The notes beneath the pieces are model-generated. The model was given only the letters and a program-made list of their open reading frames with translations, had not been told where the DNA came from and did not search any database. A stretch of 64,000 bases of DNA from Raillietiella orientalis (Eukaryota): assembly GCA_036172245.1 (NCBI GenBank), contig JAYWIR010000076.1:248001-312000 (forward strand), written 5' to 3'. Position numbers and translations under genes: made by a program. Each line of letters begins with the position of its first letter. Within the stretch, counting starts at the first letter, position 1. Below, in pieces: positions 7,311 through 64,000 of this stretch.

Positions 7311-7359
7311 ACCATCCCGTCCCCCATTGACGGACGCACAGAAATTCCGGTTGCTTATT

Positions 7360-14274: not shown

Positions 14275-14491
14275 TCCCCTCCCTGCCCTCGAAACTCTTT
14301 TTTTCTGGTTTATCTCTTTTATTTTTCTGTTTGTTTTTTCCCCTATGCCCTTTTGCTGTCGGGGAGTGCCACGCCGATCTGCGCCTTGGTGTCCCGACAG
14401 ATCGCGTGTCTAAGGCCGCAGTGGGGCCTTATACCACGAATTATAGAGAGTTTTTTCTAAATAAACGCCACGGGCGTACCCTGGTGGCAAC

Positions 14492-27960: not shown

Positions 27961-28439
27961 TTCGAAGCTCGCGGCAGCTTTCTTCGAACGCTCTTATTAT
28001 AAGCGTTCGAAGAAAGCTGCCGCGAAAGATGCGCCACTGGAGCCCTAGGCCAGGACCACATCCGAGAGCGCGCGAATAACACCAAAAAGGTCGAGAAAAA
28101 TGGCCAGAAATCTCTATGGCAGCTGGTAACCTCCAGAAAAGAAAAAAAATAAGCGCTTGCACAACATCCGAGAAAATTAAATGCTGTATCCTTGTGGTTT
28201 TTATCCCGTTTGCGCCGGAACGTCTATTAAAATAAAATTATCTGGGAACATAGTTCTCAGGCAAGGGAAATTGGAATTCAGGGGTGGCGGTTCCTGATAC
28301 AGGATCTTGCATTCTGAGAGATCGAAACAGGAGGAAATGGACAATATATAAATTAAAATAGAGAGGCAGTCAGGGGTAAAGGTCTTTAGCTTATACCGCA
28401 TGCAGGAGATCTTCGTTCTCATTTGGTCGTTGATTTGTG

Positions 28440-29520: not shown

Positions 29521-29699
29521 GCGAGTTCCCACGAGGTGTTCCGCAACGGACGTTTTGCCCAAAACTTGGCCGAGTCAGGAAGTGGAGAAACAATAGGTTC
29601 CATGAAATCATCTAATGGATACAAGGAAACGGTTTCCGATCCCGCGATGACGACTACGTCTGCTGGCAGGGAGCCCCTTTCCTTGAAAACAGCGAGGAT

Positions 29700-37900: not shown

Positions 37901-37938
37901 GTCCCGCTGTTGGCGACCTCTGCTCCGCAGCCCACGGA
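34930..37938 (-). mobile_element. Divergent B-type LINE (copy B4), ORF2 3' two-thirds, truncated by A2
   Basis: ORF 36838-37701 has ILSEILLSQDA..LLQERVAQQS..VAVDQHKAFDCVNQ. 3' end AATAAACGTCCCGGCGTGACCCGGTAAGAAAA abuts ATTTCAACG. Confidence 0.85.
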
Positions 37939-44500: not shown

Positions 44501-46849
44501 TTTTCGAAGCTGAGGGTGACGCGCCTAAGGAAGATCGCGAGGTCCGTGGTAAGCCCGGAGCAGTCTTACGCTGTACTAAGAAGATCCATGGATGCGAACA
44601 TTCTTTTGGCTCGCATTTGGTGGCAGCTGCAACAGCGCGTTGCGGAGGACAGCCGAACAGCGGCTTGACCTTCTGCTGAGTGCGAGCGCCAGTGCGGACG
44701 GACGGGTGGAAGGCCGGGAGCTTCAGCAGTAGGAGTAGATTTGCATAAAGCAATCGACTGCTTCAACTAGGAACTACCCTTGGAGCTCCTTGAGCGTCGT
44801 GAGTTTCCGAATCAACATCTCCTGTACTTGCGCTCCTGCTGGCGCCACGCGCTCATCCAACTGCATTACAGTGGAACCCGCGTGTACGGTGTGGCCGTGC
44901 GCAGAGGCATAAGACAGGGCGACAGATTAAGCCCGTTGCTCTTCAGCGTCTACTCTGAGTTGGTGCTGAAAGCATACAGGCTGACGCTGGCCGTCCTGGC
45001 CAGCGCCATTCCGTGCACTCCGTTTGCTGCAGCATACGCCGACGACCTTCTGCTTCTGTGGCCCATGTCCACTCCGCCGGACTCGGTCGAAGACTTCTTC
45101 GAGTTGATCCGTCGTGGAGCGGGCATGAGCGTTAACAAGGAAGAGTGCTCCGTCGTGCCGGTGGGTGCGTCGTGGGAGGAGCAGGCCGACTGGATCCGCC
45201 TGGGGATCCCCACGGTCAGGTACTTCAAATACCTTGGCGTTTCGTTGGGCGACTTCTGCTCGTCTGAAGCGTGGTCGGCCTATCTTTAGAAGGCAGAGAT
45301 GGCTCTAGGCCCGTTCCTGGAAGGCAAGTTCGTCTTCCCGAAAGGTCGTGCCTATGGAACATTTTTCTTGCCCCCCTCCTTCGACCCTTATTTTTTGTAT
45401 GTTCGCCTCCTCATGTGATTAAACTCCGGACGCAGCGTGTCCTACGTAAGGACTTGTGGAGCGCTCCACGATCCAGGGTTCGACTTAAAGATTTGGTGGA
45501 GCCATGCCAGGACGCAAGCTTGGGCATTCTGACCATCGAGAAGATTGGACTGCAAGTGCAGCTCCGGCTTCTATCCCTATGTGGGAAATTGTGGTTTAGT
45601 CACTGGTGTGCTCCGGCTCGCCATATCCTCCAGCGTTGTGTGGGCAGTGCAGGACTGCTGTCGTTGCTGCCGCGCAACCTGTGCCGCAGAACTGGGTTTG
45701 GCTACCCACTCAGGTATCTGTCCTCGTTGTTAGCCCATTCCTGGATTTCCTGCCGCCCCTCCAGCTGGAATCCTTGGCAGCAGGAAGCTCTGGAGCACTG
45801 GACTTCCACTTTATTTGTTCGTCCAGAGCAACTGCGGCTTCTAAAGGGCCTCTTACGCAAACCGCTAGGAGTGATCCTACAGGACTGGTCGCTTTGGTCC
45901 CGGGCAGCCGTCTCTCCCATCGCCGCAGCGCTGTCTGCTCTCAGGGCAAACAACGACAGTAGCCAACCGGAAAGGTGGGAGTTCTTCTGCAGCATTGCAG
46001 GAGTGGAAAGACTGCTGAGCGGCTGCAATACAAGCGTGTTGGTAGAAGCTGCCACCTCTCGTTACCCGGCAAAGAGACTCCTTTGGTGGAGTGAGGCTGT
46101 TGGATTACTCCCCGAAGATCTCGTGGTCCCTTCCTTGTGCGTGGACACCTATGTGTTTCCGCTCCGATGGAAACAGGATATTCTGCTTTTCCTGCACTGT
46201 GGATCTCAGTGAAATAAGCGCAGACACTTGGTTTCCTGGGAAGTCGCCTCCCCGAACTGCCTCAGGTGCGGGGCGATAGAATCGCTTACGCACTTGCTCC
46301 TTGAGTGCAGTGACTTGCGGAAGTTATTGCGGAGACTTGCTTTGGCACTTCGTCGTCCCTAGTACATAGTCATCGGCCTGCTGCGATGCTTCTTCAGCGA
46401 AGACGGACTGGATAAAGGCGCTGTGATCGAAACAATCTGTTGCATCCGCGCCATCGTAGCGGCGCTCCGTAAGCTAGAAGGAAGCTCGCAGCGAATATAC
46501 GCCGCCAGGATAGCCGAAAACCTTATGAAGGTAGTTGTCAGGTGGCCTCATCTGCCAAGAAAAGTCTCCACGGAAGTCGTCATCGTCAGACAGCGCTTCT
46601 AGGAAGATGAGAAACGTTTAATACCAAAGATCCCTGACCCCATTCTCCACTGTTTTTCTGTTTGTTCTCTCATGTTTTCTTTATTTTGTACCCCACTCCC
46701 TCCATTCCTTTCTTTTAGAAGGCGGCCTGTGTGCCGGTGATTCGTCCGGGCTGAACTTTCTGTATGGGCCTTTCGTGTGTCTTAAAAGGATGAATCTCAT
46801 TTCAAGATTGTGGTTTGTTTTTACAAATAAACGTCCCGGCGCGACCGGG
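41528..46849 (+). mobile_element. B'-family LINE (copy B5), slightly 5'-truncated and decayed; central endonuclease region deleted
   Basis: ORF1 remnant with CSECGQDGHRLTKC. TAATG at 43503. ORF2 has WNLNGL, LQE, KTPGEDG, GIRQGD and AYADD, to a stop at about 46602. 3' end AATAAACGTCCCGGCGCGACCGGG. Confidence 0.88.
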
Positions 46850-46856
46850 TTCAATC

Positions 46857-47926
46857 CGCATTAGCGTTGTTCGCGTACAGACCTGCTTTTGCGTCGCTCC
46901 GCGTTAGGCTCACTCTTGTGTGTTTTGGTTCTCCTGTGCTTCTGCTGGTACCTCCTCCTGAGATGCCGGTTTCGGCTGCTAGCTAGGAGCCACTGTCCTC
47001 GTCGACGGCAAGGACCTTCGCCCAGGTCGCTTCCTTTGCGGCTACAATGGTACCTTCGTCCGACAGCCCTGAGCTGCAGGCGTATGTAGCAGATGGCTAC
47101 ACGCCTGCACTCAGGTATAAGGTAAGTGTCCTTATGCGTGAGCGAACTGGGCGCGAGTTTGGCCAAGAACTCCAACGAATTGCAGTTCAGAGAGGCCAGC
47201 TGGAGTCCACCATGCCCATGAGTGGATGCGGCTACTGGGAGATGTCCAGTAAGGACGCTCTTCTTCCGCAGCGTTTTCTGCACACGCCGCTGCTCATTCG
47301 TAGGCAGGACATACTTTTCATCACAGCGGACCAGTCGTTCGTTGTCCGGCTGAGTGGAGTGAGCAAGGGCCTTTCGGACCTCCAGGTCTTGAAGGCCCTT
47401 GAAAAACTCGCCACCGTTCACGCGCTTTTGAGTTTGCCAAACCCTGCTAAGGGTTCCGACGACCATCACAGCGGGCTCGCGCAGGTGCGATTGACGATGG
47501 CGGATCGGTGGGCAATGCTCACGCGACTGCAGGTGGATGAAATGACCATCCGCCTGTATTTTGAGGGGCAAACGCTTGTGTGCATGGAATGCGGGCAGGA
47601 GGTTCACCGCCTTACGAAGTGTCCTTCCGCTCTTGTTGTCACCGCCATGAGTCCAGTCACACAAAAAGAGCGTGCCCGGAGCTCTTTTGAAAAGAAAAGC
47701 GCAAGAACGAAGCGCGTATTGCATCGCAAAATAAACGCCGCGAATCGAGAGAAAAACCTCAAAACTTAGGAGAGCGTTGCGAAAACCGCAAGCGCGCATC
47801 TGCAGAACACTGTTATTCTTTTCCACAGAAAAGGGAGGAAAACATAAGAAAACGCTTCGCGGCGAAGCCTCAGGCTACCGAGGCGACGGAAGCTGGCGAA
47901 GAATGCGAACTTTCACCAAACCTCGG
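46857..47926 (+). mobile_element. B'-family LINE (copy B6): 5' UTR plus ORF1 N-half, directly downstream of B5 and truncated by A3
   Basis: ATG at 46963 (early TAG) in frame with ORF 47047-47769, which is colinear with B5 ORF1 (41563-42440). Confidence 0.85.
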
Positions 47927-48019
47927 TTAAGACGGACGTGTTCTTCCTTGGCTACCGAGTGATTCGAAAGGAAGACGCTTTTTTAGTGGTTTATTAGTGT
48001 GAAACATCGTTGACATCCG

Positions 48020-49898
48020 ATGGCCACCTTGCCTGAGGTCACCACGATGGAAGTAGGTGTACGGGAGGCTTGAACACTACCACAGCCTACAGAATCAGGG
48101 GCGTCCGTCCGGTAATCGCCCTCAGTGCCCAAGTCGTGGAGCTGGAGCCCTATAATGGCCGCGCTCAGAGCGGAAACCCTGGGCGAACAAATGGCCTAAC
48201 GGGCAGCTGGTTACAAGTCCAGCTTAGTGTTCCAATTAGGAAACCTATTTGATGGGCGAACTGCACGCGACTTCACAAAGGCGCTGAAGGACGCCAATGT
48301 GTTCTAGAAGCTTCTCGACGGCCTCTGCGTCCTCAGCGGCGGGCAGCGGGTCGAGGTGGTATGCAAGGATATCACCTTGGCCCGACACCTGATCACCGAC
48401 CCGCTGATCGTTGATGGTCGGAAGATCTTGCCGATAACGATGGACCGCTCGGTGGTGGTCCATCTCACTGGGATCTCCAGTCGCAAGACGAGATCAGCGG
48501 TTCGAGAACAGCTACAAAAGCACGGAGAAGTGCACGCGTTGTGGCCCAAGTCCACGATTTTCCAAGCCTACAATAGCCTTTTCGGAGGTCAAGCTGCGGC
48601 GCGTATCACGGTAAAAGAGGGTGGTGCGCTTCCCCATAAGCTGGAGGTCTGCCAAGAAGCGGTGGACCTCTGGTACGTGGGAAAACGCCAATTTTGTGGC
48701 TACTGCAATGCAGTAGGGCATCTACGAAAAAGGTGCTTGAACATTGTGTGCCACCTATGCGGCGAAAAGGGTCACGTTCGGCGCGTGTGCCCCAAGCGCC
48801 TTACCCCGGTGCCCCCTGCCGCCAAAAAGGCGCAGGGAAAACGTGGAAAGCTGGTAGAAAGACCAGCTCGCGAAAATGGTCGTTCCCAACTTCCAGCCTC
48901 CCTTCCTCCCGTACAGACGTCAGAGGAAATAGCTCCAGTGGACGCGGGAATGGAGGAGGGTTGGCAGCTGGTTCAGGCCAAAAAAGAAAAAAAAAAGAAA
49001 TTAATGCCAGGAGAAAAGTCGGAGAAGAAAACTGCCGGCAAAAAGAAAAAAACCGCGCCGCTTTCAAAAAAAAAAACAACTTCGCGAATGCTCGGTGGCA
49101 CTCGAACGCTTAGCCGTTCCTGCCGAGGCCGCGCGCGGCAATGTTCGCGGAACAGCTGATGCGGACGCGATGAATACTCGCGTGGACGAGCCCAATCTAC
49201 GTGTAGAGGGTGAGACGCGAGACTCGCGCGCCGACAGCCAGGACGCCGCGCTCGATAAAGTCGCGGAGGAGCCCGCGGCAACGTTCGCCGTCAACGATGA
49301 CGCCGCGCTCGATAAGGTCGCGGAGCAGCCCGCGGCAACGGTCGCCGCTGGCGAAGACGCGGCCTTCGAGAAAGCGGCGGAGGAGCTCGTAGCAACGCTC
49401 GCCGAGCGCGAAACCCCGTCGCGCAAGGGCGTACGCAGGTCGGCTCCGACGAAGGCCCCCGCAGGTGAGGGCGACCTGGGGGCCGGAAGCAAATCCTCCT
49501 CCTCGGAGGCACCCCACAGGAAGTCGGGACGCAAGTCCCAGAAACCCAGGAGGCGCCTCCCCTCCACCAGCGAGGAGGAGAAACCGGAAGGAAGCGGCAG
49601 CGTGGTAATCCCGGAGGGGGAATACCCACGCCAGGAATCCGTCGAGTCGACCACCCCCATGAAGGAGGGAGAGCAGGGGGGTGAAGTCCTCCCTGCAGTC
49701 GCGAAACCTGAGCAGCCCGAACCCATAGAGAAAGGCGAACATGTAGGCGCGACTCCACCTGCGGGTGATCCGGCCGACGCGCCGGCACCGATGGAGGAGG
49801 AGGAAAAGGTGCCTTCAGTACCTGTCCCCCCTCCCCCTCCACCTAGCGTCCCGCCCCAGCCGGTGGCGGACGCCGCATCGCCGTTTTCCCTGGACTAA
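48020..49898 (+). pseudogene. A3 ORF1 (gag-like), frameshifted
   Basis: CGYCNAVGHLRKRC and CHLCGEKGHVRRVC knuckles. Low-complexity C-tail. Frameshifts, including one in an A-run near 49070. Confidence 0.85.
49242..49412 (+). repeat. 57-bp (19-aa) in-frame tandem repeat, 3 units, in A3 ORF1
   Basis: DAALDKVAEEPAATFAVND / DAALDKVAEQPAATVAAGE / DAAFEKAAEELVATLAERE, with units starting at 49242, 49299 and 49356. Confidence 0.85.
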
Positions 49899-50357
49899 CA
49901 CCTGGGCTCGCCAGTCGCCGTCGGATTCGCGCGGCCTGTTGGAACGTCAACGGGCTGCGCGACGACGGCAACAGGCGAGATACAGCCGACACCCTGCGTG
50001 AGCTCGACCTGGCGCTGCTGCAGGAGATCCACGTGATCACCGCGGCAGACGCCCAGGAGATCGAGACGATCGCGGGGGGTCGGCTGTATTGGCGATGCGG
50101 CCTCCGCAACACCTGCGGGGTCGCGTTCTTCGTGAAGCCGGCCATCGACGCTGCCGTGAAGGGCGTGCGGTTTGATGACGACGGTCGGATTGGTCAGCTG
50201 ATTCTCAGCTGGTCCGACTCGATCGACCTAATCGTCACAAACGTGTATGGCCCCAGCGGCAAACAGGGGTACCGCCACCGCACCAGGCTGCTGGAAACCC
50301 TGAAGCGCGACTGGCTGGCGGATACCAATGTGCGAAAGGCTCACCTGATAGCGGGTG

Positions 50358-50366
50358 ATTTCAATC
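50358..50366 (+). repeat. Target-site duplication ATTTCAATC (second copy at 56274-56282)
   Basis: Identical 9-mer on both sides of B2. Removing B2 restores GCG GGT GAT TTC AAT CTC CGC CTG = AGDFNLRL. Confidence 0.9.
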
Positions 50367-50371
50367 GAGTG

Positions 50372-50381
50372 CGGACGTGTT
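50372..50381 (+). promoter_or_regulatory. Shared 5'-terminal motif CGGACGTGTT, putative internal promoter (representative copy)
   Basis: Found within about 30 bp of the 5' end at 1413, 37942, 47933, 50372 and 17016-17025(-). Variants at 1073(-), 8940(-) and 46878. Function is inferred. Confidence 0.55.
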
Positions 50382-50444
50382 TTTCTTCGCTCTCGTCTCC
50401 GTGCTTTCATCCGCTTCATCTTGGCGTCGTACATTTTGACGACG

Positions 50445-52361
50445 ATGTCGACCCAACTTGAAGCTACTGAAGTTGGAGGAACAGCATCCGGATATGCAAT
50501 CGCGGAACCGACGGCCGCCTCCACTTCGTCTTTCTCGCCAATGCAGAGGAGTTTTGCTGACGTTGCTGCCACAGCAGCCGTCAAAGGGAAACCACTCGAC
50601 GAGTCGGAGTTGCGGGCATACGTAGCCCAAGGCTATAGACCTGCTCTCCGATATAAGGTGAGTGGTTTTCTTTCTGCGCGCGACGGGAATCAGTTCAACG
50701 ATGAACTGACGCGTGTTGGCGTGCGGGAGGAGGACCTCCTCGCCATTATGCCCGTAAAAGACATGGGCTATTTCAAGGTGCGTTGCAAAGACGCTGCACT
50801 TGTGCAACGCTTGCTGCGCACCCCGTTGTCGATCCGTGGCCAGAAGGTCTTCCCGGCCGCCATGGACGACTCATTTGTGGCGGAGATTTTCGACATCGAG
50901 TCGGAAGTCTCCGATACTGATATTCGGAACGCGTTGGCGAAATTCGCCACGGTCCATGCGCTGTGGAGGGTGCGTAGCAACCTCAAGGACTTCCCGTCCA
51001 TACACAGCGGAGTCGCTGGAGTCCGGCTTACAATGCCGGACCGCAGTCTGCTGCCTACCAAACTACAGGTGAATGACACGGTCGTTCACCTGTGGTTCGT
51101 GGGCAAAGTAAAAACGTGCGAGCAATGCGGGAACGAGGGGCATTGTTTTGATAAATGCCCCTCTGGAAAATGCCGTTATTGCAAACTATCCGGGCACCAA
51201 TTGAAAAATTGCCCGGATCTTTTGCGAAAAAAGGCAGCCGCGGAGCTCCATCCTAGAAAACAAAGCGCGGATAAAAAGAAAAAATCTGCGAAAAACCTGG
51301 AGACCCCACGGCAGAAATTCGGTAAAAACGCGAGGCGGAATGTCGCCCCAAAGCAACAGGAAACCTCGAACGCGAAGCCCTGCGCACCCCCTCTCGCGGC
51401 AGGGGAGCCGCAAAAGGAAGGGTGCGGGGAATCCGGGGCAATGGTAAGTCCCCCTAGGCGCAATAGCTGTCCTAACCTAGCACACCCGGCTCTCTCGGAG
51501 TTCGAGCAGCCGGCGAAGAAGCCAATGGACAACGGCGGTAAGGACACTTCCAGTACCGTCAAATCCATTCCTTCACCTCCTGCAGTGGCTGAGAAGCCCA
51601 AATCGGGTAAGAAGGGTTGTGCCGTGTCGACTTCGAAAGTCGGCAAAAAAAAATCCGCGTCGCTATCCAACACCGCGAAAGCGGAGAAAAATCTCACGCC
51701 GTCGCAGTCGGAGAGCAAGCTCTCGACTGGCGCGGATGCCATGCCAACGAAGGGATTAAAAGCCCTTCCGAAAGCAGCGTCCATGACGAGCGTGTCGGAG
51801 CTATCGAAAGTGCTCCCGTCCAAAGACGCGGATGGCTTCAAAGATGGCCATGGAGCACAATCTCCATTTACGGCGCCACGCGAAGTGACGAACCGTAATG
51901 AAGTAAAGAAGACTTCAGCAAACGTCCCTCGTGCAACTGCGCGTGAGCACGCTGAAAACGCGCGCGCCGGGAAAGCAGCCGTCACCAAAAGCGATGCTCT
52001 GGTGACGGAAAACGAAAACAGGACAGCTGTCAATCCAGCAGAACCTGTCACTGCTTCGCGGAAGGCCGAAACCCGATCAAACATGCGCCGGTCGGACTCC
52101 GAAATGGATGCCGTTCCGATCACCGAGACGAGGACAACTCGTTCGAAAGCGTGTGCGCGCCGATCAAAAGTAGGCAGCCAGGCAACGCTCGCCGCGAAGC
52201 CACGCGAAGTCTCCACGAAACCCGACGGGGTTAAGCCTGGCGTGGAGGCATTACATGCATGCAGCACGACAGAGGACGGTGGCGACCGTCCCCTCCAGCC
52301 AGTCGTGCTGCTCGCCGTCTGCTCGCCGGATAAAGCGAGCAAAAAGCCGCCACCTTCTTAG
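50445..52361 (+). CDS. LINE ORF1 gag-like nucleic-acid-binding protein (638 aa), intact
   Basis: Open frame from ATG 50445. CEQCGNEGHCFDKC and CRYCKLSGHQLKNC (CX2CX4HX4C) knuckles. Long basic low-complexity C-terminus. Confidence 0.9.
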   Translation: MSTQLEATEVGGTASGYAIAEPTAASTSSFSPMQRSFADVAATAAVKGKPLDESELRAYVAQGYRPALRYKVSGFLSARDGNQFNDELTRVGVREEDLLAIMPVKDMGYFKVRCKDAALVQRLLRTPLSIRGQKVFPAAMDDSFVAEIFDIESEVSDTDIRNALAKFATVHALWRVRSNLKDFPSIHSGVAGVRLTMPDRSLLPTKLQVNDTVVHLWFVGKVKTCEQCGNEGHCFDKCPSGKCRYCKLSGHQLKNCPDLLRKKAAAELHPRKQSADKKKKSAKNLETPRQKFGKNARRNVAPKQQETSNAKPCAPPLAAGEPQKEGCGESGAMVSPPRRNSCPNLAHPALSEFEQPAKKPMDNGGKDTSSTVKSIPSPPAVAEKPKSGKKGCAVSTSKVGKKKSASLSNTAKAEKNLTPSQSESKLSTGADAMPTKGLKALPKAASMTSVSELSKVLPSKDADGFKDGHGAQSPFTAPREVTNRNEVKKTSANVPRATAREHAENARAGKAAVTKSDALVTENENRTAVNPAEPVTASRKAETRSNMRRSDSEMDAVPITETRTTRSKACARRSKVGSQATLAAKPREVSTKPDGVKPGVEALHACSTTEDGGDRPLQPVVLLAVCSPDKASKKPPPS

Positions 52362-52366
52362 CAGTA

Positions 52367-55300
52367 ATGCGGGGAATCGCGTCTTCTCGTCGTCTGTCCG
52401 TAACGTGTTGGAACGTGAACGGACTGCAGAACGACGAGAAGAGGCGATTAGTAGCCAACGCCCTGCGCCCCTTCGACCTCGCGCTCCTGCAGGAGATTCA
52501 CGTAATCTCCGACGAGCCGACAGCCGAAATCGAGGAGCGCGCAGGCGGAACGCTACATTGGCGGTGCGGCGGCGCACACACGTGCGGCGTCGCGTTCCTC
52601 GTAAGAGGAAAAATGGCGGAAGCGGTGCGTAGTGTTCGTTTCGATGACAACGGACGGATAGGCCAGCTTGTCATCAAGTGGTCCGAGTCCATCGATCTCG
52701 TCGTTACGAACGTCTACGCGCCGAGTGGCTCTCGCTACCTCGAAGAAAGAGTAGCTTCCTTTGGTGAGGTGCAGAGCCAGTGGCTCAACAACTTCGGCTT
52801 CCAAGTGGCGCACCTCGTCGCTGGGGACTTCAACGTCCGCCTGCTCTCCGACGATTGGAGCCGCCCGAGGGAGCGCGCGCTGCCCATCGAGATGTGCGCG
52901 TCCGGGCACGCCGCCAACTTGATGGTCAGCGAACCAGGAATGGAAAGATCGCTCGTTCACGTTTTCCTCGATGAAAACCTGCATTCGCGTGTGGGTAGGA
53001 GAGGAAGATTGTTGACTGAGCTTTCTGACCACCACAGGTTGGAGTTTGAGATCCTTCCGCCAGGCAGGGGGCCTCCGTTGCAAAGCTGGAGGATGCAGGA
53101 GGATTGGCTTAGCCAACCGGAGGCTGCGGAGCATCTACGTGGATACCTCCGGGGCTTTGCCATTCAAGAACTTGCGGACTGGGACGATCTCAAAAGATCT
53201 GTCCGCGAGTTCTGTTGCCAATTCCCCTTGCACCGGCTTCCACGCGGTTTCGGAGAGGGCGTGGCCAACAGTAGAGACTGTCTGCAGGCCCGCACGTTTT
53301 CGAGACGCGCGGATGTCGGGCGTCTCGCAGAGTACAAGGCGAGGGCCGAGCGCCAGGTCTGGCAGTCCGGAGCAGCATGCCTGTTGGACGACAAGGGCCA
53401 GAAATGTTAAGCTCCAGCCGAAGTACGCCACATTGTGAGACGCTACTACACCTCTTTGTACGCGGAATCCCCGACGGAGGATATTCTTTCTGAGATACTC
53501 CTGTCTCAGGATGCTCGTGTTGTCGGCGAGGAGGAACGCGAACGTCTCAACGAGCCCTTCACGGCGGATGAATTTTCGTCCGCCATCGCTGGGCTGAAGA
53601 GACGAAAGGCGCCAGGCGAGGATGGGCTCCCTGCAGAGTTTTATCAGTGCTTTGCTATGGAGCTCATTCCCTTGATGCTTAAACTCGCGACGCTGATGAG
53701 TGGATCCGGGAATGTCCCTGATTCCTTCCGCTCAGCAAAGGTGCGTCTCCTGCCGAAAGGCGGAGACTTGCGCCAACTTAACAACTGGCGTCCGATCACC
53801 TTGGTGAATTCGGACGTCAAGTTGTTTTCCAAGCTGTGGGTCGCGCGGTTAGGAAGAATCGCGGAATCTGTGGTGAGCCCGGAACAAACCTACGCGGGTC
53901 CGGGACGATCCATGGAGGCGAACATCCTTTTCGCGCGTACATGGATGCAGCTGCAGGAAGTTGTGACGCAGCAAAGCCAGGCTGCTGCGAAAGTCACTGC
54001 CGCAGGCAAAAAGAACAGGCGCCGACGGCAGGAGGGAACGCCAGGTGCCTTGGTTGTCGCCGTCGATCTCCACAAGGCGTTCGACTGCGTAAACCAGAAG
54101 CTGCTTTTGGAGCTTATGGAACGCCTTGGGTTCCCGGGGCTACTCCTGCTGTATTTGCGCGCGTGCTGGCGCCACGCGCTAACCTGCATCACTTTTAGCG
54201 GCTGCCGCGTGTATGGTATTCCCGTTCGTAGGGGCATCCGACAGGGCGACAGCTTAAGCCCGTTGCTCTTCAGCATCTTCTTTGAGTTGGTGCTAAGAGC
54301 ATACAGGCTGATGCTGTCTCACTTGCCAAGCTCCTGCCCGGGAACGCCTGCCGTGGCCGCCTACGCTGATGACCTGCTTCTTCTGCTCCCCATGTCCACC
54401 CCGGCGTCCAGTGTCGAGGATTTCCTCGACCTGATTCGTCGGGGAGCGGGCGTGAGCGTGAACAGAGAGAAGAGCGTGGTCGTTCCTGTGGGTACGTCGT
54501 GGGAGGGGCAGTCCGACTGGATCCGCCTGGGGATCCCCACGGGCGGGTACTTTAAGTACCTTGGCGTTCCGTTGGGCGCTTTCGGCGCAGCCGAAGCGTG
54601 CGCGGACTGTCTTCAGAAAGCAGAGTTGGCCATCAGCCCGCTCTTTAACGGCAAGTTTACCTTGCAGGAACGGGCGACTATTTGGAACACCTTTGTGGCC
54701 CCCCTCCTCCGTCCCCTGTTTTTTGTTTTGAACCCCCCCTATGCGGCAAAACAGCGGGCTAAGCGCCTGCTTAGGAACGCTCTCTGAGGTCCGGCGAGAT
54801 CCAGGAGATGCCTTAAAGATTTGTCAGCTCCGCGTCGGGATGCTGGTTTGGGTATCCTGACAATGGAGCGAATCGGACTGCAGGTGAAGTTCCGACTGCT
54901 GGCACTGTGTGCCCAGCTATGGACATCCCCCCTGTGTGTGCCAGCCCGTATTCTCCTGCGGAGATGCGCCGGCAGCAAAGGATTTCTCTCGCTTTTGCCG
55001 GGCACTCAATACAGGAAGCGGGGTTTCGGTTTTCCATTGCGGCAGTTGACCGCACTTCTGGAAGCACACTCTTGGATCTCCTGCCGCCCAATGAACTTCG
55101 AAGCTTGGCGGCAGGAGTCTGTTGAATCCTGGGCGGCGTTCCAAGGAATACGCTTTGAAGATCTTCGCCCCCTGTGTCAATTTTTTCCACGATCCTTGGA
55201 AGAAGTACTGCAGGCCGAGGTGAAGTGTTCTACCCTGGCTGCCACGCCTCTTGCCGCAGCGCTGTCTGCCCTCTGGGCAAGAAACGATAGTTACCAACCG

Positions 55301-55960
55301 GCGAGGTGGGAGGTTTCCTGCACGATAGCGGGAAAAACCAAACTCCTTGGCGCCTGGAAGACGAGTGAGTTGGCGGACGCCGCCACTCCTCGTGTTACTG
55401 CAAAGAAACTCCTCCGGTGGGCAGAACAACTTGCTGTCACCCCCGAAGAACTTGTAGTCCCTCCACAGTGTATTGACTGTTCGCTGCTTCCCCTTGCTTG
55501 GAAACAAGCCGTGCTGCTTTTCGTTCACTGGGGTTTTCAGTGCAACGAGCGTTGGCATCGTGACTCCGGGGGACTTGCGTCTGCGAACTGCGTTCTGTGC
55601 GGATCGACGGAGTGGATTCCGCACCTACTTCTGGACTGCGGTGTCCTACAAGGACTGTGGCGTAGGCTGGCAACAGCACTATTGCATCCCGTGGACACCG
55701 CAAGAGACTTGCTGCGACGATTCTTCACGCCGAGCGGGCTTTCACTAAGCGCAAGGATTGCAACCATCGGTTGCATACGCGCGATAGTTTCCGTCCGCCA
55801 GGCGTTGGTAATCAACGGACAGCACCAAGAGGTAATCAGCAAAGCATCCTTCTACATGGGAGCATCCGCTAGATGGCCTCATCTGACAGAGGAGACAAAG
55901 AGGAATCTCGCCGCAATACACCGCCGGTTTACACACCCTCATCAGCGGCCAACCCGGTGA
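52367..55960 (+). pseudogene. B2 ORF2 (APE endonuclease, RT, CCHC finger; about 1197 codons) with two in-frame stops
   Basis: Three ORF-track pieces in one frame, with stops ending at 53410 and 54787. Motifs WNVNGL, LQE, NVYAP, GDFN, SDH, DLHKAFD, GIRQGD and YADD. Confidence 0.93.
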
Positions 55961-56243
55961 TCATTGCCCTACCCTCCATAAACTAAATTTGTATTTTCTT
56001 TTTACACCCGCGTCCCCATAGGCTCCGGAACATTTTAGGTGCTCATCGTATAAATCCCCGTGAGTACGGAGCCTAACCAAAAACCCGTTACCCTTCCCTC
56101 CAGTTTTTGATTTTTGTTTTTTTCCCCTCATTCCCCCCACGCTGCGAGCGGTTTGTTTACCAGGCCTGCGTGCCGGTAATTTTTCTATGTTCTCTGTCGT
56201 TCTCTTGGTTGGGGACATTGTCCCTGACCAGTTTATTATTATT

Positions 56244-56273
56244 AATAAACGCCCCGGCGTGACCGGGTGATAA
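56244..56273 (+). terminator. Poly(A) signal plus GC stem-loop at the LINE 3' terminus (representative copy)
   Basis: AATAAA-CGC-CCCGG-CGTGA-CCGGG-TGATAA. Equivalents at nine other element ends. Confidence 0.65.
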
Positions 56274-59200
56274 ATTTCAATCTCCGCCTGCTATCAGGTT
56301 AGCCGGAAACACAAGTGAACGCGATGAACGAGTTGTGCGCCGCCATGCGTGCGCGCAGCTTGTTCGCGGGTGAGAAAGGAATGGTCAGCAGCATCGACCA
56401 CGTCTTTCTGGACGCTGACCTGTGTTCACGCGTCGGCAAACGGGGGAGGGTTGTGTCGACGTTGTCGGACCATTCCCGGCTAATTTTCGAGATGCGGCCT
56501 CGCGACAAAGGACCGCCATCCAGGGATTGGCGTCTGCTGGGGGACTGGACGCGACTCTCAGGTGCGAAGGAACACCTTCGCGAATACCTGAGAGGCGTCA
56601 CGCTCCGGAATCTCTAGGACTGGGACCTTTTTGAGGAATCGGTCCGCGATTTCTGTGAGCAGTTCCCCCTGGATCGCCTGTTCCCCGGATTCGGCGAGTG
56701 TGCTCGCAACCATCGGGCCTATTTACAGGCTCGTAGGTACGAGTGAACCCCTAATGTCCGTCGCCTGGCCGAGTACCGCGCCGGGGCCGAACGCCAAGCC
56801 TGGCAATCCGGGTCGGCCAGCTTGCTGGAAGGCCAGGGCCGGGAATGTTCGTCCCCGGCGTCGGTACGGCATCTCGTGCGGAGTTTCTATTCCTCCCTTC
56901 ACGCCAGGGAGCCCCCGGATCGAAACGCCTCTCTATGCTTGCTTCCGGATGGCAATCCGGCAATAGGGGAGGAGGAGATGGAAAGCCTCGACGAGCCTTT
57001 CACCACCGGCGAAATTCTCGCCGTTATCAAAAGGCTCAAGAAACGTAAAGCTCCAGGGGAAGACGGCTTGCCCGCGGAGTTCTCTCAGAGCTTCGCGGAA
57101 GAGCTGCCACCCCTGCTGCTTAAGTTGATCAGGCTGATCCGAGACGAAGGCGATGTTCCCGCCTCGTTTCGGTCAGCCAGAGTGAGGCTCCTTCCGAAAG
57201 GGGGAGACCTCAGGAATTTAAAGAACTGGCGTCCGATCACAATCGTGAATACGGACGCCAAGTTGACAGCAGGGCTATGGGCTTCGCGTCTGGGGTAGGT
57301 GGCAGAATCCGTAATTAGCCCGGAGCAGACTTATGCTGTTCCCGGGCGAAGTATGGATGCCAACCTCTTCTTCGCAAGCACATGGGTGCACCTGCAGAGA
57401 AGGGAAAAGAAAGGGATAGGGAAAGTCGGCAACCCCACATTGGGGCTGCCATCCGGGCTGGGAAGGGACCCCCGGGCTGGGAAGGGGGCCCTAGCACTCG
57501 CAGTCGATCTCCACAAGGCGTTCGACTGTGTAGACCAGGAACTCCTCTTGGAGCTCCTGGGTCGCATGGGCTTCCCACCTTCCCTGAATTCCTACCTGCG
57601 CTCTTGCTGGCGGAATGCGATGATTACCGTCTGTTTCAGTGGACAGAAGGTGTATGGCGTGCCGGTGCGGCGGGGCATAAGGCAGGGCGATAGCCTCAGC
57701 CCCCTGCTCTTTAGCACCTACTTTGAGTTGGTGCTGAGAGCGTACAGGGTGACTTTGGCCCCCTTGCCGAGCTCGTGCCCCGGCACGCCCGCCGTAGCAG
57801 CGTACGCCGACGACCTTCTGCTGCTGTTACCTATGTCCACCCGGCGAAGGCGGTCGGAGACTTCTTCGATCTGCTCAGCCGTGGGACCGGACTGCAGGTC
57901 AACAGGGCGAAGTCGTCGGTGGTGCCAGTAGGTGCGGCGTGGGCAAAGCAGCAGGACTGGGTCCGTCTGGGGATCCCCACGGCGAGGTGTTTCAAGTACC
58001 TTGGTGTGCCGTTGGGGGACTACTCCCCTGCGGAATCGTGGTCCAACTGCCTCCAAAATGTCGAGACGGCGATCGGCCCGTTCCTGGAAGGCAAGTTTCA
58101 CTTGCCGGAACCCGTCGCGGTTTGGAACGCCTTCGCGGCCTCCATCCTCCGCCCCTTGCTTTTTGTTTGCCCCTTCACCGTGAAATCGAAGAAGAGGACG
58201 AAGGACCTCCTAAGGATCGCCCTTTGGGGAAGAGGGAGTCTCCGAGTCCCGTTGATGGACTTGTGTGTTCCGCGTTGGGATGACGGTCTCGGCCTCTTGA
58301 CGCTGGAGCGAGTGGAGACTCAGCTGCGATGGCGTATTCTGGCCATCGCAACGAAGTTATGGAGCACCCCTTGGTGCATTCAGGCCCGCCTCCTAGCCAG
58401 CCGTGTGTTTCGCTGCGATGGACTCGCATCTTTTCTTCTGCGCCCAGGCCAGAAGATAAGAAGATGCGGCCTACTGCTCGGGCGCATGGCAACATTGGTC
58501 AAGGAGAGCGTCTGGATGGCATGCAGCGCGCCAACTCCTCCGCATGGCTGGAGGAATCTGTTGGAACGTGGGCGAGGCTAAATGCCCAACGAGAAGAGAA
58601 CTACAACTGCCTGCTATTCTACAACCGTGCCCACTGCAGCCTGCGGACCTTCTTGCAATGTCCCGCCTGGTGCACGTGGGCCGAGACCACACTCCTAGCT
58701 ACGGCGATGCCCTCTCTGAGGAGGTCGCTCTCCAGCAGCCGCACGCCTAGGTGGCAAGTCTACTGCCGAATCGCAGGCAGAGTGAAGAAGTTAAGCGGCT
58801 GGACCACGGCGCAACTGGCCGATGCCACTACTCGAAGTGTCCTCCCCCGTAATTTAAAGAGATGGGGCGAGCTGCTCGGCATCCCGATGGATGACCTGAT
58901 GTGGCCCCCGGATTTTTTTGGATTGAGGATCCTCCCCCTGTAGTGGCAGGAGTCGGCGCTTCTGCTGTTGCATTGGGATCTACCCTGCAATGCACGCCGC
59001 CACCACTGGACGAGGGGTCGAGTAGATCCTGCCTGCATCAGGTGTGGGAAGCAAGAAACCCTCCCCCACCTTCTTGTTGATTGCGCTACCCTTCGACCCC
59101 TGTGGGAGCGTCTTGGTACCTCCCTACGGCTACAGGAGGCAGCCAGCCCAGAGACGTTTTTCGGCATCTTTTCGTGCTGGATGCCCTGTGACCAGCCGCC

Positions 59201-59398
59201 AACCTATCAGCACTCTGCTGCATCCGAGCGATCGTGACAAGCTGGAGCGATTACAGAAGACCGAGCCACGACAGGGGTGCCGTCGAACTGGCAGTCCGCT
59301 ACCTGCGGCTTGCCACCAGATGGCCCCACCTCGGAATCATTCGGACGGACCTCGAGGGCATCCTGGAAAGGATGGACCCTCCTCCCAGTGGACCGTGA
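56274..59398 (+). pseudogene. A3 ORF2 3' part, disrupted
   Basis: SIDHVFLD, LSDH, KAPGEDG, DLHKAFD, AYADD and CIRCGKQETLPHLLVDC motifs, with stops and frameshifts. Confidence 0.9.
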
Positions 59399-59605
59399 TT
59401 TCTTCCCAGCCCTCCAAATTCTTTTTGTTTTTCTGTTTTCTTTTTCTTTTTGTTGTTCATCACTACCTTCCGCTGCCGAGGACAGTCGCGCCAGTCTGCG
59501 TACCGGCGACCCGGCAGGTTCTGTTGAGTTGGCCGTAGTCTGGCCTAGTACCACTAATTGTAAAGAGAGTTTACAATAAACGCTCCAGCGTGACCAAGTG
59601 GCAAC

Positions 59606-60234
59606 GCAAAGGGAGAAATAATAACTCCGCACGAGATGCCGTACCGACGTCGTGGACGAACATTCCCGGCCCTGGTCGTCCAGCAAGCTGGACGACCCGG
59701 AATGCAAAGCTTGCCGTTCGGCCCCAGCGCGGTACTCGGCCAGGCGACAAACATTAGGGGTTCTCTCGTACCTACGGGCCTGTAAATAGGCCCGATGGTT
59801 GCGAGGACCCTCGCCGAATCCGAGGGGCAGGCGGTCCAGGGGGAACTGCTCGCAGAACTCCCGGACCGAGGCCTTGAGAAGGTCACAATCCGAGAGATTC
59901 TGGAGCGTGACGCCTCTCAGGAATTCGCGAAGGTGTTTCTTCGCACCTAAGAGTCGCGTCCAGTCCCCCAGCAGACGCCAATCCCTGGATGGCGGTCCTT
60001 TGTCGCGAGGCCGCATCTCGAAAATTAGCCGGGAATGGTCCGACAACGTCGACACAACCCTCCCCCGTTTGCCGACGCGTGAACACAGGTCAGCGTCCAG
60101 GAAGACGTGGTCGATGCTGCTGACCATTCCTTTCTCACCCGCGAACAAGCTGCGCGCACGCATGGCGGCGCACAACTCGTTCATCGCGTTCACTTGTGTT
60201 TTCGGCTCACCTGTTAGCAGGAAGAGATTGAAAT
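59606..60234 (-). pseudogene. A-family ORF2 fragment (copy A4), from GDFN into the linker; host of B3
   Basis: FNLFLLTGEPKTQVNAMNELCAAMRARSLF..LSDH..VRHLVRSYY, nearly identical to 56274-56900. Confidence 0.88.
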
Positions 60235-63200
60235 TTATCACCCGGTCACGCCGGGGCGTTTATTAATAATAATAAACTGGTCAGGGACAATGTCCCCAAC
60301 CAAGAGAACGACAGAGAACATATAAAAATTACCGGCACGCAGGCCTGGTAAACAAACCGCTCGCAGCGTGGGGGGAATGAGGGGAAACAAACAAAAATCA
60401 AAAACTGGAGGGAAGGGAAAAGGGTTTTTGGTTAGGCTCCGTACTCACGGGGATTTATACGATGAGCACCTCAAATGTTCCGGAGCCTATGGAGACGCGA
60501 GTGTAAAAAGAAAATGCAAAATTAGTTTATGGAGGGTAGGGCAATGATCACCGGGTTGGCCGCTGCTGAGGGTGTGTAAACCGGCGGTGTATTGCGGCGA
60601 GATTCCTTTTTGTCTCCTCTGTCAAATGAGGCCATCTAGCGGATGCTCCCATGTAGAAGGATGCTTTGCTGATTACCTCTTGGTGATGTCCGTTGATTAG
60701 TAACGCCTGGCGAACGGAAACTATCGCGCGTATGCAACCGATGGTTGCAATCCTTGCGCTTAGTGACAGCCCGCTCGGCGTGGAGAATCGTCGCAGCAAG
60801 TCTCTTGCGGTGTCCACGGGATGCATTAGTGCTGTTGCCAGCCTACGCCACAGTCCTTGTAGGACACCGCAGTCCAGAAGTAGGTGCGGAATCGACTCCG
60901 TCGATCCGCACCGAACGCAGTTCGCAGACGCAAGTCCACCGGAGTCACGATGCCAACACTCGTTGCACTGAAAACCCCAGTGAACGAAAAGCAGCACGGT
61001 TTGCTTCCAAGCAAGAGGAGGCAGCGAACTGTCCATAAACTGTGGAGGGACTACAAGTTCTTCGGGGGTGACAGCAAGTTCTTCTGCCCACCGGAGGAGT
61101 CCCTTTGCAGTAACACGAGGAGTGGCGGCGTCCGCCAACTCACTTGTCTTCCAGGTGCCAAGGAGTCTGGTTCTTCTAGCTATCGTGCAGAAAGCCTCCC
61201 ACCCCGCCTGTTGGTAACTGTCGTTTCTTGCCCTGAGGGCAGACAGCGCTGCGGCAAGAGGCGTGGCAGCCAGGGTAGAGAACTTCACCTCGTCCTGCAG
61301 TACTTCTTCCAAGGATCGTGGAAAAAATTGGCGCGAGGGGCGAAGATCTTTAGAGCGTATTCCTTGGAACGCCGCCCAGGATTCAACAGACTCCTGTCGC
61401 CAAGCTTCAAAGTTCATTGGGCGGCAGGAGATCCACGAGTGAGCTTCCAGAAGTGCGGTCAACTGCCGCAATGGAAACCCGAAACCCCGCTTCCTGTATT
61501 GAGTGCCCGGCAAAAGCGAGAGAAATCCTCCGCTGCCGGCGCATCTCCGCAGGAGAATGCGGGCTGGCACACACTGGGGTGATGTCCATAGCTGGGCACA
61601 CAGTGCCAGCAGTCGGAACTGCACCTGCAGTCCGATTCCCTCCATTGTCAAGATACCCAAACCAGCATCCCGACGCGGAGCTAACAAATCTTTAAGGCGG
61701 ATCCTGGATCTCGCCGGACCCCAGAGAACGTTCCTGAGCAGGCGTTTAGCCCGCTGTTTTGCCGCATAGGGGGGGTCCAAAACAAAAAACAGGGGACGGA
61801 GGAGGGGGGCCACAAAGGTGTTCCAAATAGTCGCCCGTTCCTGCAAGGTAAACTTGCCGTTAAAGAACGGGCTGATGGCCAACTCTGCTTTCTGAAGACA
61901 GTCCGCCCACGCTTCGGCTGCTTCGAAAGCGCCCAACGGAACGTCCAGGTACTTAAAGTACCCGCTCGTGGGGATCCCCAGGCGGATCCAGTCGGACTGC
62001 CCCTCCCACGACGTACCCACAGGAACGACCACGCTCTTCTCTCTGTTTACGCTCATGCACGCTCCCCGACGAATCAGGTCGAAGAAATCCTCGACACTGG
62101 ACGCCGGGGTGGACATGGGGAGCAGAAGAAGCAGGTCATCAGCGTAAGCGGCCACGGCAGGCGTTCCCGGGCAGGAGCTTGGCAAGTGAGACAGCGTCAG
62201 CCTGTATGCTCTTAGCACCAACTCAAAGAAGATGCTGAAGAGCAACGGGCTTAAGCTGTCGCCCTGTCGGATGCCCCTACGAACGGGACTACCATACACG
62301 CGGCAGCCGCTGAAAGTAATGCAGGTTAGCGCGTGGCGCCAGCACGCGCGCAAATACAGCAGCAGTTGCGCCGGGAACCCAAGGCGTTCCATAAGCTCCA
62401 AAAGCAGCTTCTGGTTTACGCAGTCGAACGCCTTGTGGAGATCGACGGCGACAACCAAGGCACCTGGCGTTCCCTCCTGCCGTCGGCGCCTGTTCTTTTT
62501 GCCTGCGGCAGTGACTTTCGCAGCAGCCTGGCTTTGCTGCGTCACAACTTCCTGCAGCTGCATCCATGTACGCGCGAAAAGGATGTTCGCCTCCATGGAT
62601 CGTCCCGGAACCGCGTAGGTTTGTTCCGGGCTCACCACAGATTCCGCGATACTTCCTAACCGCGCGACCCACAGCTTGGAAAACAACTTGACGTCCGAGT
62701 TCACCAAGGTGATCGGACGCCAGTTGTTAAGTTGGCGCAAGTCTCCGCCTTTCGGCAGGAGACGCACCTTTGCTGAGCGGAAGGAATCAGGGACATTCCC
62801 GGATTCACTCATCAGCGTCGCGAGTTTAAGCATCAAGGGAATGAGCTCCACTGCAAAGCACTGATAAAACTCTGCAGGGAGTTCATCCTCGCCTGGCGCC
62901 TTTCGTCTCTTCAGCCCAGCGATTGCGGACGAAAATTCATCCGCCGTGAAGTGCTCGTCGAGACGTTCGCGTTCCTCCTCGCCGACAACACGAGCATCCT
63001 GAGACAGGAGTATCTCAGAAAGAATATCCTCCGTCGGGGATTCCGCGTAGAGCGAGGAGTAGTAGCGTCTCACAATGCGGCGTACTTCGGCTGGGGCCGA
63101 ACATTCCTGGCCCTTGTCGTCCAACAGGCATGCTGCTCCGGACTGCCAGACCTGGCGCTCGGCCCTCGCCTTGTACTCTGCGAGACGCCCGACATCAGCG

Positions 63201-64000
63201 CGTCTCGAAAACGTGCGGGCCTGCAGAAAGTCTCTACTGTTGGCCACACCCTCTCCGAAACCGCGTAAAAGTTGGTGCAAGGGGAATTGGCAGCAGAACT
63301 CGCGGACAGATCTTTTGAGATCGTCCCAGTCCGCAAGTTCTTGAATAGCAAAGCCTCGGAGGTATCCACGTAGAAGCTCCGCAGCCTCCGGTTGGCTAAG
63401 CCAATCCGCCTGCATCCTCCAGTTTTGCAACGGAGGCCCCCTGCCTGGCGGAAGGATCTCAAACTCCAACCTGTGGTGGTCAGAAAGCTCAGTCAACAAT
63501 CTTCCTCTCCTACTCACACGCGAATGCAGGTTTTCATCGAGGAAAACGTGATCGAGCGATCTTTCCATTCCAGGTTCGCTGACCATCAAGTTGGCGGCGT
63601 GCACGGACGCGCACATCTCGATGGGCAGCGCGCGTTCCCTCGGGCGGCTCCAATCGTCGGAGAGCAGGCGGACGTTGAAGTCCCCAGCGACGAGGTGCGC
63701 CACTTGGAAGCCGAAGTTGTTGAGCCACTGGCTCTGCACCTCACCAAAGAAAGCTACTCTTTCTTCGAGGTAGCGAGAGCCACTCGGCGCGAAGACGTTC
63801 GTAACGACGAGATCGATAGACTCGGACCACTGGATGACAAGCTGGCCTACCCGTCCGTCGTCGTCGAAACGAACACTACGCACCGCTTCCGCCATTTTTC
63901 CTCTTACGAGGAACGCGACGCCGCACGTGTGTGCGCCGCCGCACCGCCAATGTAGCGTTCCGCCTGCGCGCTCCTCGATTTCGGCTGCCTGCTCGTCGGA
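60235..64000 (-). mobile_element. B-family LINE (copy B3); 5' part lies beyond the window
   Basis: 3' end AATAAACGCCCCGGCGTGACCGGGTGATAA followed by ATTTCAATC (60226-60234). 3' UTR matches B2. Confidence 0.93.
60548..64000 (-). CDS. LINE ORF2 polyprotein (APE endonuclease, reverse transcriptase, zinc finger); open frame, 5'-partial
   Basis: 1115-aa ORF whose frame stays open to the window edge. GDFN, SLDHVF, LSDH, NWRPITL, DLHKAFD, GIRQGDSLSP, YADD and CVRCGSTESIPHLLLDC all present. Confidence 0.93.
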   Translation of the reverse strand, partial: SDEQAAEIEERAGGTLHWRCGGAHTCGVAFLVRGKMAEAVRSVRFDDDGRVGQLVIQWSESIDLVVTNVFAPSGSRYLEERVAFFGEVQSQWLNNFGFQVAHLVAGDFNVRLLSDDWSRPRERALPIEMCASVHAANLMVSEPGMERSLDHVFLDENLHSRVSRRGRLLTELSDHHRLEFEILPPGRGPPLQNWRMQADWLSQPEAAELLRGYLRGFAIQELADWDDLKRSVREFCCQFPLHQLLRGFGEGVANSRDFLQARTFSRRADVGRLAEYKARAERQVWQSGAACLLDDKGQECSAPAEVRRIVRRYYSSLYAESPTEDILSEILLSQDARVVGEEERERLDEHFTADEFSSAIAGLKRRKAPGEDELPAEFYQCFAVELIPLMLKLATLMSESGNVPDSFRSAKVRLLPKGGDLRQLNNWRPITLVNSDVKLFSKLWVARLGSIAESVVSPEQTYAVPGRSMEANILFARTWMQLQEVVTQQSQAAAKVTAAGKKNRRRRQEGTPGALVVAVDLHKAFDCVNQKLLLELMERLGFPAQLLLYLRACWRHALTCITFSGCRVYGSPVRRGIRQGDSLSPLLFSIFFELVLRAYRLTLSHLPSSCPGTPAVAAYADDLLLLLPMSTPASSVEDFFDLIRRGACMSVNREKSVVVPVGTSWEGQSDWIRLGIPTSGYFKYLDVPLGAFEAAEAWADCLQKAELAISPFFNGKFTLQERATIWNTFVAPLLRPLFFVLDPPYAAKQRAKRLLRNVLWGPARSRIRLKDLLAPRRDAGLGILTMEGIGLQVQFRLLALCAQLWTSPQCVPARILLRRCAGSGGFLSLLPGTQYRKRGFGFPLRQLTALLEAHSWISCRPMNFEAWRQESVESWAAFQGIRSKDLRPSRQFFPRSLEEVLQDEVKFSTLAATPLAAALSALRARNDSYQQAGWEAFCTIARRTRLLGTWKTSELADAATPRVTAKGLLRWAEELAVTPEELVVPPQFMDSSLPPLAWKQTVLLFVHWGFQCNECWHRDSGGLASANCVRCGSTESIPHLLLDCGVLQGLWRRLATALMHPVDTARDLLRRFSTPSGLSLSARIATIGCIRAIVSVRQALLINGHHQEVISKASFYMGASARWPHLTEETKRNLAAIHRRFTHPQQRPTR

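Follow-up and report, generated by a model that had tools for sequence, protein, structure and literature searches.

Evidence for recurrent integration of a LINE clade at the GDFN endonuclease codons of sibling LINE families in Raillietiella orientalis

Results

B2 and its insertion site in host A3

The stretch of DNA analysed, referred to as the window, comprises 64,000 nucleotides of Raillietiella orientalis (assembly GCA_036172245.1, contig JAYWIR010000076.1, positions 248,001 to 312,000 of the forward strand), and all coordinates below are those of the window. It consists largely of a nest of related long interspersed nuclear elements (LINEs), in which the members of one clade, B, are likely to have integrated site-specifically into the DNA that encodes the GDFN endonuclease motif of sibling LINE families. 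The element B2 and its host, A3, are arranged as follows.

47933–50366, plus strand: host A3, 5' part; 5' terminus CGGACGTGTT..., open reading frame (ORF) 1 and the N-terminal half of the ORF2 endonuclease up to GDFN
50358–50366, plus strand: 5' copy of the target-site duplication of B2, ATTTCAATC; codons (G)AT TTC AAT C of the host A3 GDFN
50367–56273, plus strand: B2, a full-length B-family LINE of 5.9 kb, without long terminal repeats (LTRs)
52823–52834, plus strand: the GDFN codons of B2 itself, GGG GAC TTC AAC, uninterrupted
56274–56282, plus strand: 3' copy of the target-site duplication, ATTTCAATC
56274–59608, plus strand: host A3, 3' part; remaining endonuclease, reverse transcriptase (RT) and 3' end ...AATAAACGCTCCAGCGTGACCAAGTGGCAAC

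B2 consists of a leader (5' untranslated region, UTR) of 78 nt, an open ORF1 of 638 codons (50445–52358) and an ORF2 (52367–55960) with two in-frame stops at 53408 and 54785, and its 3' end is AATAAACGCCCCGGCGTGACCGGGTGATAA. A sequence-only reading of this DNA had proposed that B2 is flanked by a perfect target-site duplication and that its excision restores the host gene. Both proposals hold, with the 9-bp ATTTCAATC found on both sides and the A3 frame restored as ...AHLIAGDFNLRLL, although the start at 50351 given there for the feature is 7 bases early, the duplication beginning at 50358 and the element at 50367. A scripted join of 49847–50366 to 56283 onward gave one open frame, ...VRKAHLIAGDFNLRLLSG*PETQ..., and B2 splits the host A3 ORF2 immediately after GDFN. 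The 3' part of A3 is degenerate, with a stop 6 codons past GDFN and frameshifts.

Junctions of the other B-clade elements

The remaining B-clade elements (B1, B3 and B4) and their host flanks are listed below.

1091–1407, plus strand: A3-type endonuclease fragment on the 5' side of B1, with ATTTCAATC at its end; 94.1–94.6% identical to the A3 5' flank
1408–5164, plus strand: B1, left part; 79.5–91.7% identical to B2, with the middle of ORF1 very divergent
8960–11142, plus strand: B1, right part; 3' end ...CCGGGTGATAA, 88.8% identical to B2
11143–14492, plus strand: host A1, the 3' flank of B1; starts ACTTTAATC, 73–74% identical to A3; 3' end ...GGTGGCAAC adjoins the LINE E
34826–34929, minus strand: host D fragment; starts ATTTCAACG and reads (D)FNVRLEPDGPNHERVLVIKVCTVAHNFSLLTSEP
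34930–37932, minus strand: B4, a B-clade LINE 70.7% identical to B2; ORF2 residues ~294–1196, 3' end ...AATAAACGTCCCGGCGTGACCCGGTAAGAAAA
59609–60234, minus strand: host A4; 626 bp long, extending from the GDFN site as far as ~ORF2 residue 364, 93.0% identical to A3
60235–64000, minus strand: B3, a B-family LINE cut by the window end, its 5' end lying outside the window
63674–63685, minus strand: the GDFN codons of B3 itself, GGG GAC TTC AAC, uninterrupted

The 3' end of B3 adjoins ATTTCAATC at 60226–60234 (minus strand), and that of B4 (...CCCGGTAAGAAAA) adjoins ATTTCAACGTTCGCC at 34921–34929 (minus strand), followed by ~100 bp of host D reading DFNVRLEPDGPNHERVLVIKVCTVAHNFSLLTSEP, as had been proposed for both. 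For B1, the 5' copy at 1399–1407 is ATTTCAATC, and the 3' copy at 11143–11151 reads ACTTTAATC and agrees at 7/9 positions. Every B-clade 3' end in the window (four in all, of B1, B2, B3 and B4) is located at homologous codons, in the sense orientation of the host, and is joined to A[T/C]TT[C/T]AA[T/C][C/G]. The 3' terminus of B1 and B2 is ...CCGGGTGATAA, and those of B1, B2 and B3 all end in GATAA directly before the target. The patterns that describe the B-clade ends are AATAAACG[C/T]CCCGGCGTGACC[G/C]GGT... for the 3' end and GAGTGCGGACGTG... for the 5' end. The exact 9-mer ATTTCAATC occurs four times on the two strands of the window, in each case at a B junction (4/4). Its wobble-degenerate form, AYTTYAAYS, occurs 9 times compared with 7.05 expected, the matches being six B-clade junction copies, the two intact GDFN codon sites of B2 and B3, and one unrelated empty site (32156). 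Chance falls far short of explaining four insertions in the same orientation at a single homologous nucleotide of ~6-kb hosts.

In a comparison with sequencing runs, X1 shared 0.47 of the sampled words with the stretch, and X2 and X3 next to nothing. One X1 contig joins 50357 to 56274 with 9 letters that fit both sides; its shorter side is 21 letters, further letters may lie between the two sides, and it is weakly suggestive of an empty A site. Two other X1 contigs, ~98% identical to B2, reach 30 nt (5') and 19 nt (3') into A-type flank; they may derive from the same locus in another individual, and hence provide no independent evidence. The X1 contigs are short, and among the 15 loose ends listed none falls at either B junction, which carries no weight.

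Predicted proteins of family B

B3 is 96.2% identical to B2 over 3766 bp, and its ORF2 is open over 1150 codons, up to the window edge. With this frame and ORF1 of B2 both open, family B looks recently active, judged from coding capacity. The RT of B3 ORF2 is recognized by Pfam RVT_1 (E = 3.4e-20, 73.1 bits, cut-off 29.6). A phmmer search with residues 1–260 of B2 ORF2 retrieved human L1 endonuclease structures 2v0s, 8sp5 and 1vyb at E = 6e-5 to 1e-4, in an alignment that places aGDFNvrl on mGDFNtpl, GDFN on GDFN; the D and N of this motif are catalytic in the L1 endonuclease. Knuckles of the C-x2-C-x4-H-x4-C (CCHC) kind were spotted by eye in the ORF1 translations, and Pfam returned 0 families for B2 ORF1 at E <= 0.01. 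In the protein database, the best relatives of B3 ORF2 are 23–30% identical and share the domain set PF03372 + PF00078 + PF13966, the best named ones being cyprinid fish proteins (E = 1e-38 and 6e-35), and the relatives in the protein atlas are generic RT/endonuclease clusters only, without recorded taxa. The 204-aa frame that runs from the A3 endonuclease through the junction into B2 had 0 matches at E <= 1e-5 among database proteins of 112–357 aa. Exact-pattern scans for the B 3' end gave 0 matches in metagenome_contigs and 0 in genome_contigs, and a protein-guided scan of metagenome_contigs gave one irrelevant match (L001, 24 residues). By its predicted proteins, the B clade, made up of B1–B3 with B4 as an older branch, comprises autonomous non-LTR retrotransposons of the apurinic/apyrimidinic endonuclease (APE) type, with an endonuclease and an RT.

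Divergence of hosts and inserts

In an RT-core tree of ten copies, B1, B2, B3 and B4 form a clade (support 99/98) to which A1, A3 and C do not belong. Among the four host copies three lineages are represented: A3/A4, A1 (74% identical to A3) and D. Between hosts A1 and A3, identity is 73.0% over 3369 bp and 74.0% over the first ~418 bp past the duplication, compared with 88.8–91.7% for the inserts B1 and B2. Host D is 62–67% identical to the homologous stretch of each of six other copies (A1, A3, A4, B1, B2 and E), and its insert B4 is 70.7% identical to B2. D is no A-like element, its distance to every family being about equal. The closest pair of hosts, A3 and A4, are 93.0% identical (44 mismatches in 626 bp) and their inserts B2 and B3 96.2% over 3766 bp (Fisher p = 5e-4). 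A3 is nested in A4, each with its own B; the canonical 3' terminus of A3, ...GTGGCAAC, adjoins A4 in antisense at ~ORF2 residue 364, indicating that A3 and A4 are separate A insertions and not the arms of a duplication. The hosts are thus more divergent than the inserts, and A3 was inserted separately into A4, a pattern that amplification of one A::B composite does not account for. The copies in the window would represent at least three, and probably four, independent B-clade insertions at the same codons. The same site is used in hosts that diverge far more than the B copies do, in agreement with the proposal that B is a target-specific APE-type LINE.

Uninterrupted sites

The A-like LINE that contains A1 is uninterrupted at the homologous codons.

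14493–15366, minus strand: E, an A-like LINE from a separate family; ORF2 residues 1–296, with the uninterrupted site GGCGATTTTAGTATTCGCC (GDFS)

The E site, at ~14900 on the minus strand, reads AHLIAGDFSIRLLSG from GATTTTAGTATT, with the GDFS letters ATTTTAGTA, and E is only 63% identical to A3. The statement of the sequence-only reading that every A- or D-type GDFN is interrupted is thus too broad for A-like elements, E being uninterrupted; the E copy, however, carries GDFS instead of GDFN. The codons at the site are GAT TTC AAT in A, GAC TTC AAC in B and GAT TTT AGT in the uninterrupted E.

Other elements of the nest

A tblastn search of the window with B2 ORF2 showed ORF2-like pieces at 1–16 kb and 28–64 kb, with a low-GC stretch (37–48% GC) between them. 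Elements are nested in the order E > A1 > B1 > C in one part and A4 > A3 > B2 in another, where each element contains the next.

5165–8959, minus strand: C, an internally deleted A-clade LINE, antisense in B1; A clade by the RT tree

C is flanked by a perfect 14-bp duplication, CACAAGGCGTTCGA, at 5151–5164 and 8960–8973, which corresponds to codons HKAFD in the RT motif A region of B1; this is a single case. C passes from ORF1 directly to ~ORF2 residue 555, and the element G (41522–46855, plus strand), a sister lineage of the B clade, is without ORF2 residues 98–251. Both were inactivated by internal deletion and not by 5' truncation, and canonical 5' termini are kept in A3, A5, E, B1, B2, C and F. 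The same pattern of internal deletion is described for the rotifer LINE Hebe in the available part of the source (PMC2861651). The 3' end of G is ...AATAAACGTCCCGGCGCGACCGGGT, followed by TCAATCCGC (46827–46880), and ~20 nt on lies the 5' UTR of a G-like element, J1 (~46870–47932). G was considered as a fifth case of the target site, as TTCAATC follows its end, and was rejected because its 3' flank scores no higher than shuffles against the post-GDFN regions of six LINEs.

The 3' end of A1 (14493) lies antisense in E at ~ORF2 residue 296, that of H (39915) antisense in A5 at ~ORF2 residue 62, and the 5' end of F (1090) adjoins an A fragment at ~ORF2 residue 48. A stretch at ~17000–28400 has 35–48% GC, compared with 55–60% in the LINEs, and no recognizable genes; Pfam gave nothing above noise on 22 frames of 16.9–28.2 kb, and Rfam gave 0 matches on the whole window. 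A more distant LINE, K (ORF2 pieces 28467–29612, minus strand), ends near 27482 inside this low-GC stretch, so not every family of the group sits in LINEs.

Discussion

Site-specific integration at the GDFN codons

The recurrence of the junction in hosts of three lineages makes it likely that the B clade integrates site-specifically into DNA encoding the GDFN endonuclease motif of sibling LINE families, and such homing is well supported within the window. Integration would proceed by target-primed reverse transcription, in which the B endonuclease would nick the bottom strand opposite GGTG^ATTTCAATC, cDNA would be primed at the RNA 3' end, starting precisely at ...GATAA, and the top strand would be cut 9 bp downstream. 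The site would remain recognizable across hosts that are 62–74% identical, as its catalytic residues are fixed at the protein level. B would gain a multicopy target whose disruption is free of cost to the cell, with inactivation of the host copy as a by-product. That B benefits from disabling a competitor's endonuclease is conjecture, and the pattern is just as well accounted for by a target that is multicopy and harmless. The LINE families have a common 5' terminus, CGGACGTGTT, ahead of which B adds GAGTG, and a common 3' end in which AATAAACG precedes a short inverted repeat rich in GC and then a short A-rich tail, poly(A) being absent. The shared 5'-terminal motif suggests an internal promoter, with which B need not rely on transcription of host A.

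Several observations weigh against site-specific integration as the explanation. The sample comprises four B junctions from a single LINE nest of 64 kb, which itself biases insertions toward LINE hosts. Exo_endo_phos scored 21.7 bits on the N-terminally cut B3 protein, under the Pfam cut-off of 24.5. The site of B itself, ACTTCAACG (then TCCGCCTGCT), differs by one base from the B4 target ATTTCAACG and is close to the used targets, yet it is empty in both intact B copies (2/2). Folding of six 3' termini gave short hairpins, none significant compared with shuffles (z = -0.4 to -1.7), and site specificity may be seated in the endonuclease or in RNA-target pairing. The B copies are also mosaic: at 55166–55365, B1 and B3 are identical at 200/200 positions, whereas identity between B2 and B3 is 90.5%. 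Between the A3 and A4 flanks it is 97–99% over the first ~400 bp (of which ~290 bp is actual flank, since ~110 bp of the first bin is still B 3' sequence) and 88–90% thereafter. Taken with the mosaic copies, this pattern implies conversion or recombination, which blurs the argument from B2/B3 divergence. The flanks of B1 come from two host lineages, the 5' flank being 94.1% and the 3' flank 74.0% identical to A3, with the switch exactly at the B insertion; with an A3-type flank on one side and an A1-type flank on the other, the locus is recombinant and its junctions do not record one clean event.

The mosaic identities suggest gene conversion or template switching among B subfamilies; at 53566–53965, B1, B2 and B3 are 97–99.5% identical. 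At the B1 locus, 97% identity to the B2 locus runs from the 5' flank into the first 80 bp of B1 and falls to 50–58% in mid-ORF1. The simplest, though unproven, reading of these alignments is that recombination or conversion took place between two B copies in different A hosts, which would explain why the B1 duplication copies differ at two wobble positions. Transport of the 5' flank along with B by read-through was also considered and was rejected, since the flank is 94–97% identical between B1 and B2 and the B ORF1 region only 50–88%.

Alternative explanations

Base pairing between the B transcript and its target, through read-through A sequence or the 8-nt CGGGTGAT, might be what mainly picks the site, with the endonuclease not acting alone, as has been proposed for the target choice of R1, R2 and SART1-type elements. 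The octamer is present both at the B 3' end (56264–56271) and in host A3 (50352–50359), upstream of and overlapping the insertion point, and it could be a pairing sequence or a priming microhomology, or a coincidence. Initiation is precise, with B1, B2 and B3 all ending in GATAA, and co-transcription with the target is cited, in the part of PMC4494074 available, as strengthening target-specific integration. However, a CCGGGTGA-like 3' terminus is also found in family C, which has a different target, the match in host A may be chance, and the B4 tail, GGTAAGAAAA, is without CGGGTGAT. We consider guidance of this kind unlikely.

The elements might instead take a ~9-bp motif anywhere, with the LINE hosts reflecting both the nest and the frequency of the motif in LINE endonuclease genes. 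Many APE-type LINEs have only loose nick-site preferences, and AYTTYAAYS is no rarer than chance in the window. The non-GDFN match at 32156 and the two matching sites of B itself are nevertheless empty, from which it follows that more than the 9-mer is read, and all four uses share one orientation and one reading-frame register of a homologous protein motif. A preference for the short motif alone is accordingly improbable as an account of the four junctions.

A single arbitrary entry of B into one A element, with the junction then inherited through segmental or inverted duplication, trans retrotransposition or gene conversion of the composite, would be favored by the head-to-head arrangement of B2/A3 and B3/A4 on opposite strands with near-identical proximal flanks, by the 94–97% identity of the B1 and B2 5' flanks, continuing across the junction into the first 80 bp of B, and by the mosaic identity among B copies, but it is very improbable given that the B1 3' host flank is only 73–74% identical to A3 when B1 and B2 are 89–92% identical, that B4 groups with B yet sits in D, which is 62–67% identical to all families, that the A3/A4 boundary is the canonical 3' terminus of A3, and that an AATAAA 25 nt before the B end would tend to end a composite transcript.

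Comparison with known systems

Full-text search of an open-access library found no report of a LINE homing to the coding or active-site motif of another LINE. The LINE targets named in the parts of the literature available are rRNA, tRNA and snRNA genes, microsatellites, telomeres and DNA transposons. B would therefore extend a known kind of element, the target-specific APE-type LINE, to a new class of target.

The closest parallels described here are Tx1L and the Tx1 clade, APE-type LINEs that also occupy one position of a multicopy mobile element and whose specificity is credited to the endonuclease in the accessible text of PMC4494074 and PMC6719617. According to the same portions of these sources, Tx1L targets Tx1D (piggyBac-type), Tx1-Mar families target Mariner-N4_AMi and Tx1-9_AMi targets Harbinger elements, all of them DNA transposons. 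Those targets are, as far as the available descriptions go, non-coding parts of DNA transposons, in contrast to the target of B, a protein-coding catalytic-motif stretch in sibling LINEs of the same lineage. As far as it was examined, the domain layout of B is also that of these elements, with an APE endonuclease, an RT, a Cys/His motif at the C-terminus and, in ORF1, candidate CCHC knuckles (by eye). B is at most a candidate member of the Tx1 clade.

R1/R2 (28S rDNA), Utopia/Keno (U2 snRNA) and SART1/TRAS1 (telomeric repeats) resemble B in their strict site, precise 3' junctions, short fixed duplications, conserved multicopy target and harmless-niche logic, as set out in the available sections of PMC4640811 and PMC5035012. 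Their targets are fixed by selection on the host, unlike the target of B, which would be fixed by selection on the enzyme of a selfish element, and the B insertion kills the target element copy. Near-pure LINE nests comparable to the present one are formed by Zepp/ZeppL in Coccomyxa and Chlamydomonas and by Cryptococcus Cnl1 arrays (PMC3446292, PMC8226300, bioRxiv 10.1101/2021.08.11.455996), for which the accessible text describes clustering, whereas B has a fixed codon-level target in another family. Nested plant LTR retrotransposons likewise take non-random positions inside other retrotransposons, although the preference described in the available part of PMC6911290 is regional and integrase-based, as opposed to the one nucleotide-precise LINE site of B.

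A further parallel lies outside the retrotransposons. Conserved active-site codons are also occupied by homing endonuclease genes, inteins and mobile introns, and in these systems, as in B, a selfish element reads DNA that is pinned by the function of the catalytic motif encoded there. B differs from them in its use of target-primed reverse transcription in place of DNA homing or splicing, in that it is not spliced out and in the destruction of the host copy.

Implications

Target-specific LINEs are natural models for programmable site-directed gene insertion and the textbook case of a harmless niche. If integration at the GDFN codons is true, it would add a new target class, the catalytic motif of a selfish element itself, and would represent a direct conflict between transposon families, beyond that of transposon and host. 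It would provide a mechanism for the build-up of pure-LINE nests, as at algal centromeres and fungal subtelomeres, and it predicts selection on synonymous GDFN-codon positions in the target families as well as a sequence-specific APE endonuclease with a recognition site of ~20 bp. As a tentative and still doubtful extension, sibling families may each target the catalytic-motif DNA of the others (B at GDFN, C at HKAFD), with escape only via synonymous or near-synonymous changes. Catalytic motifs would then be the only stretches recognizable across the diverging families, and an arms race at wobble positions would follow, together with LINE nests that are self-contained.

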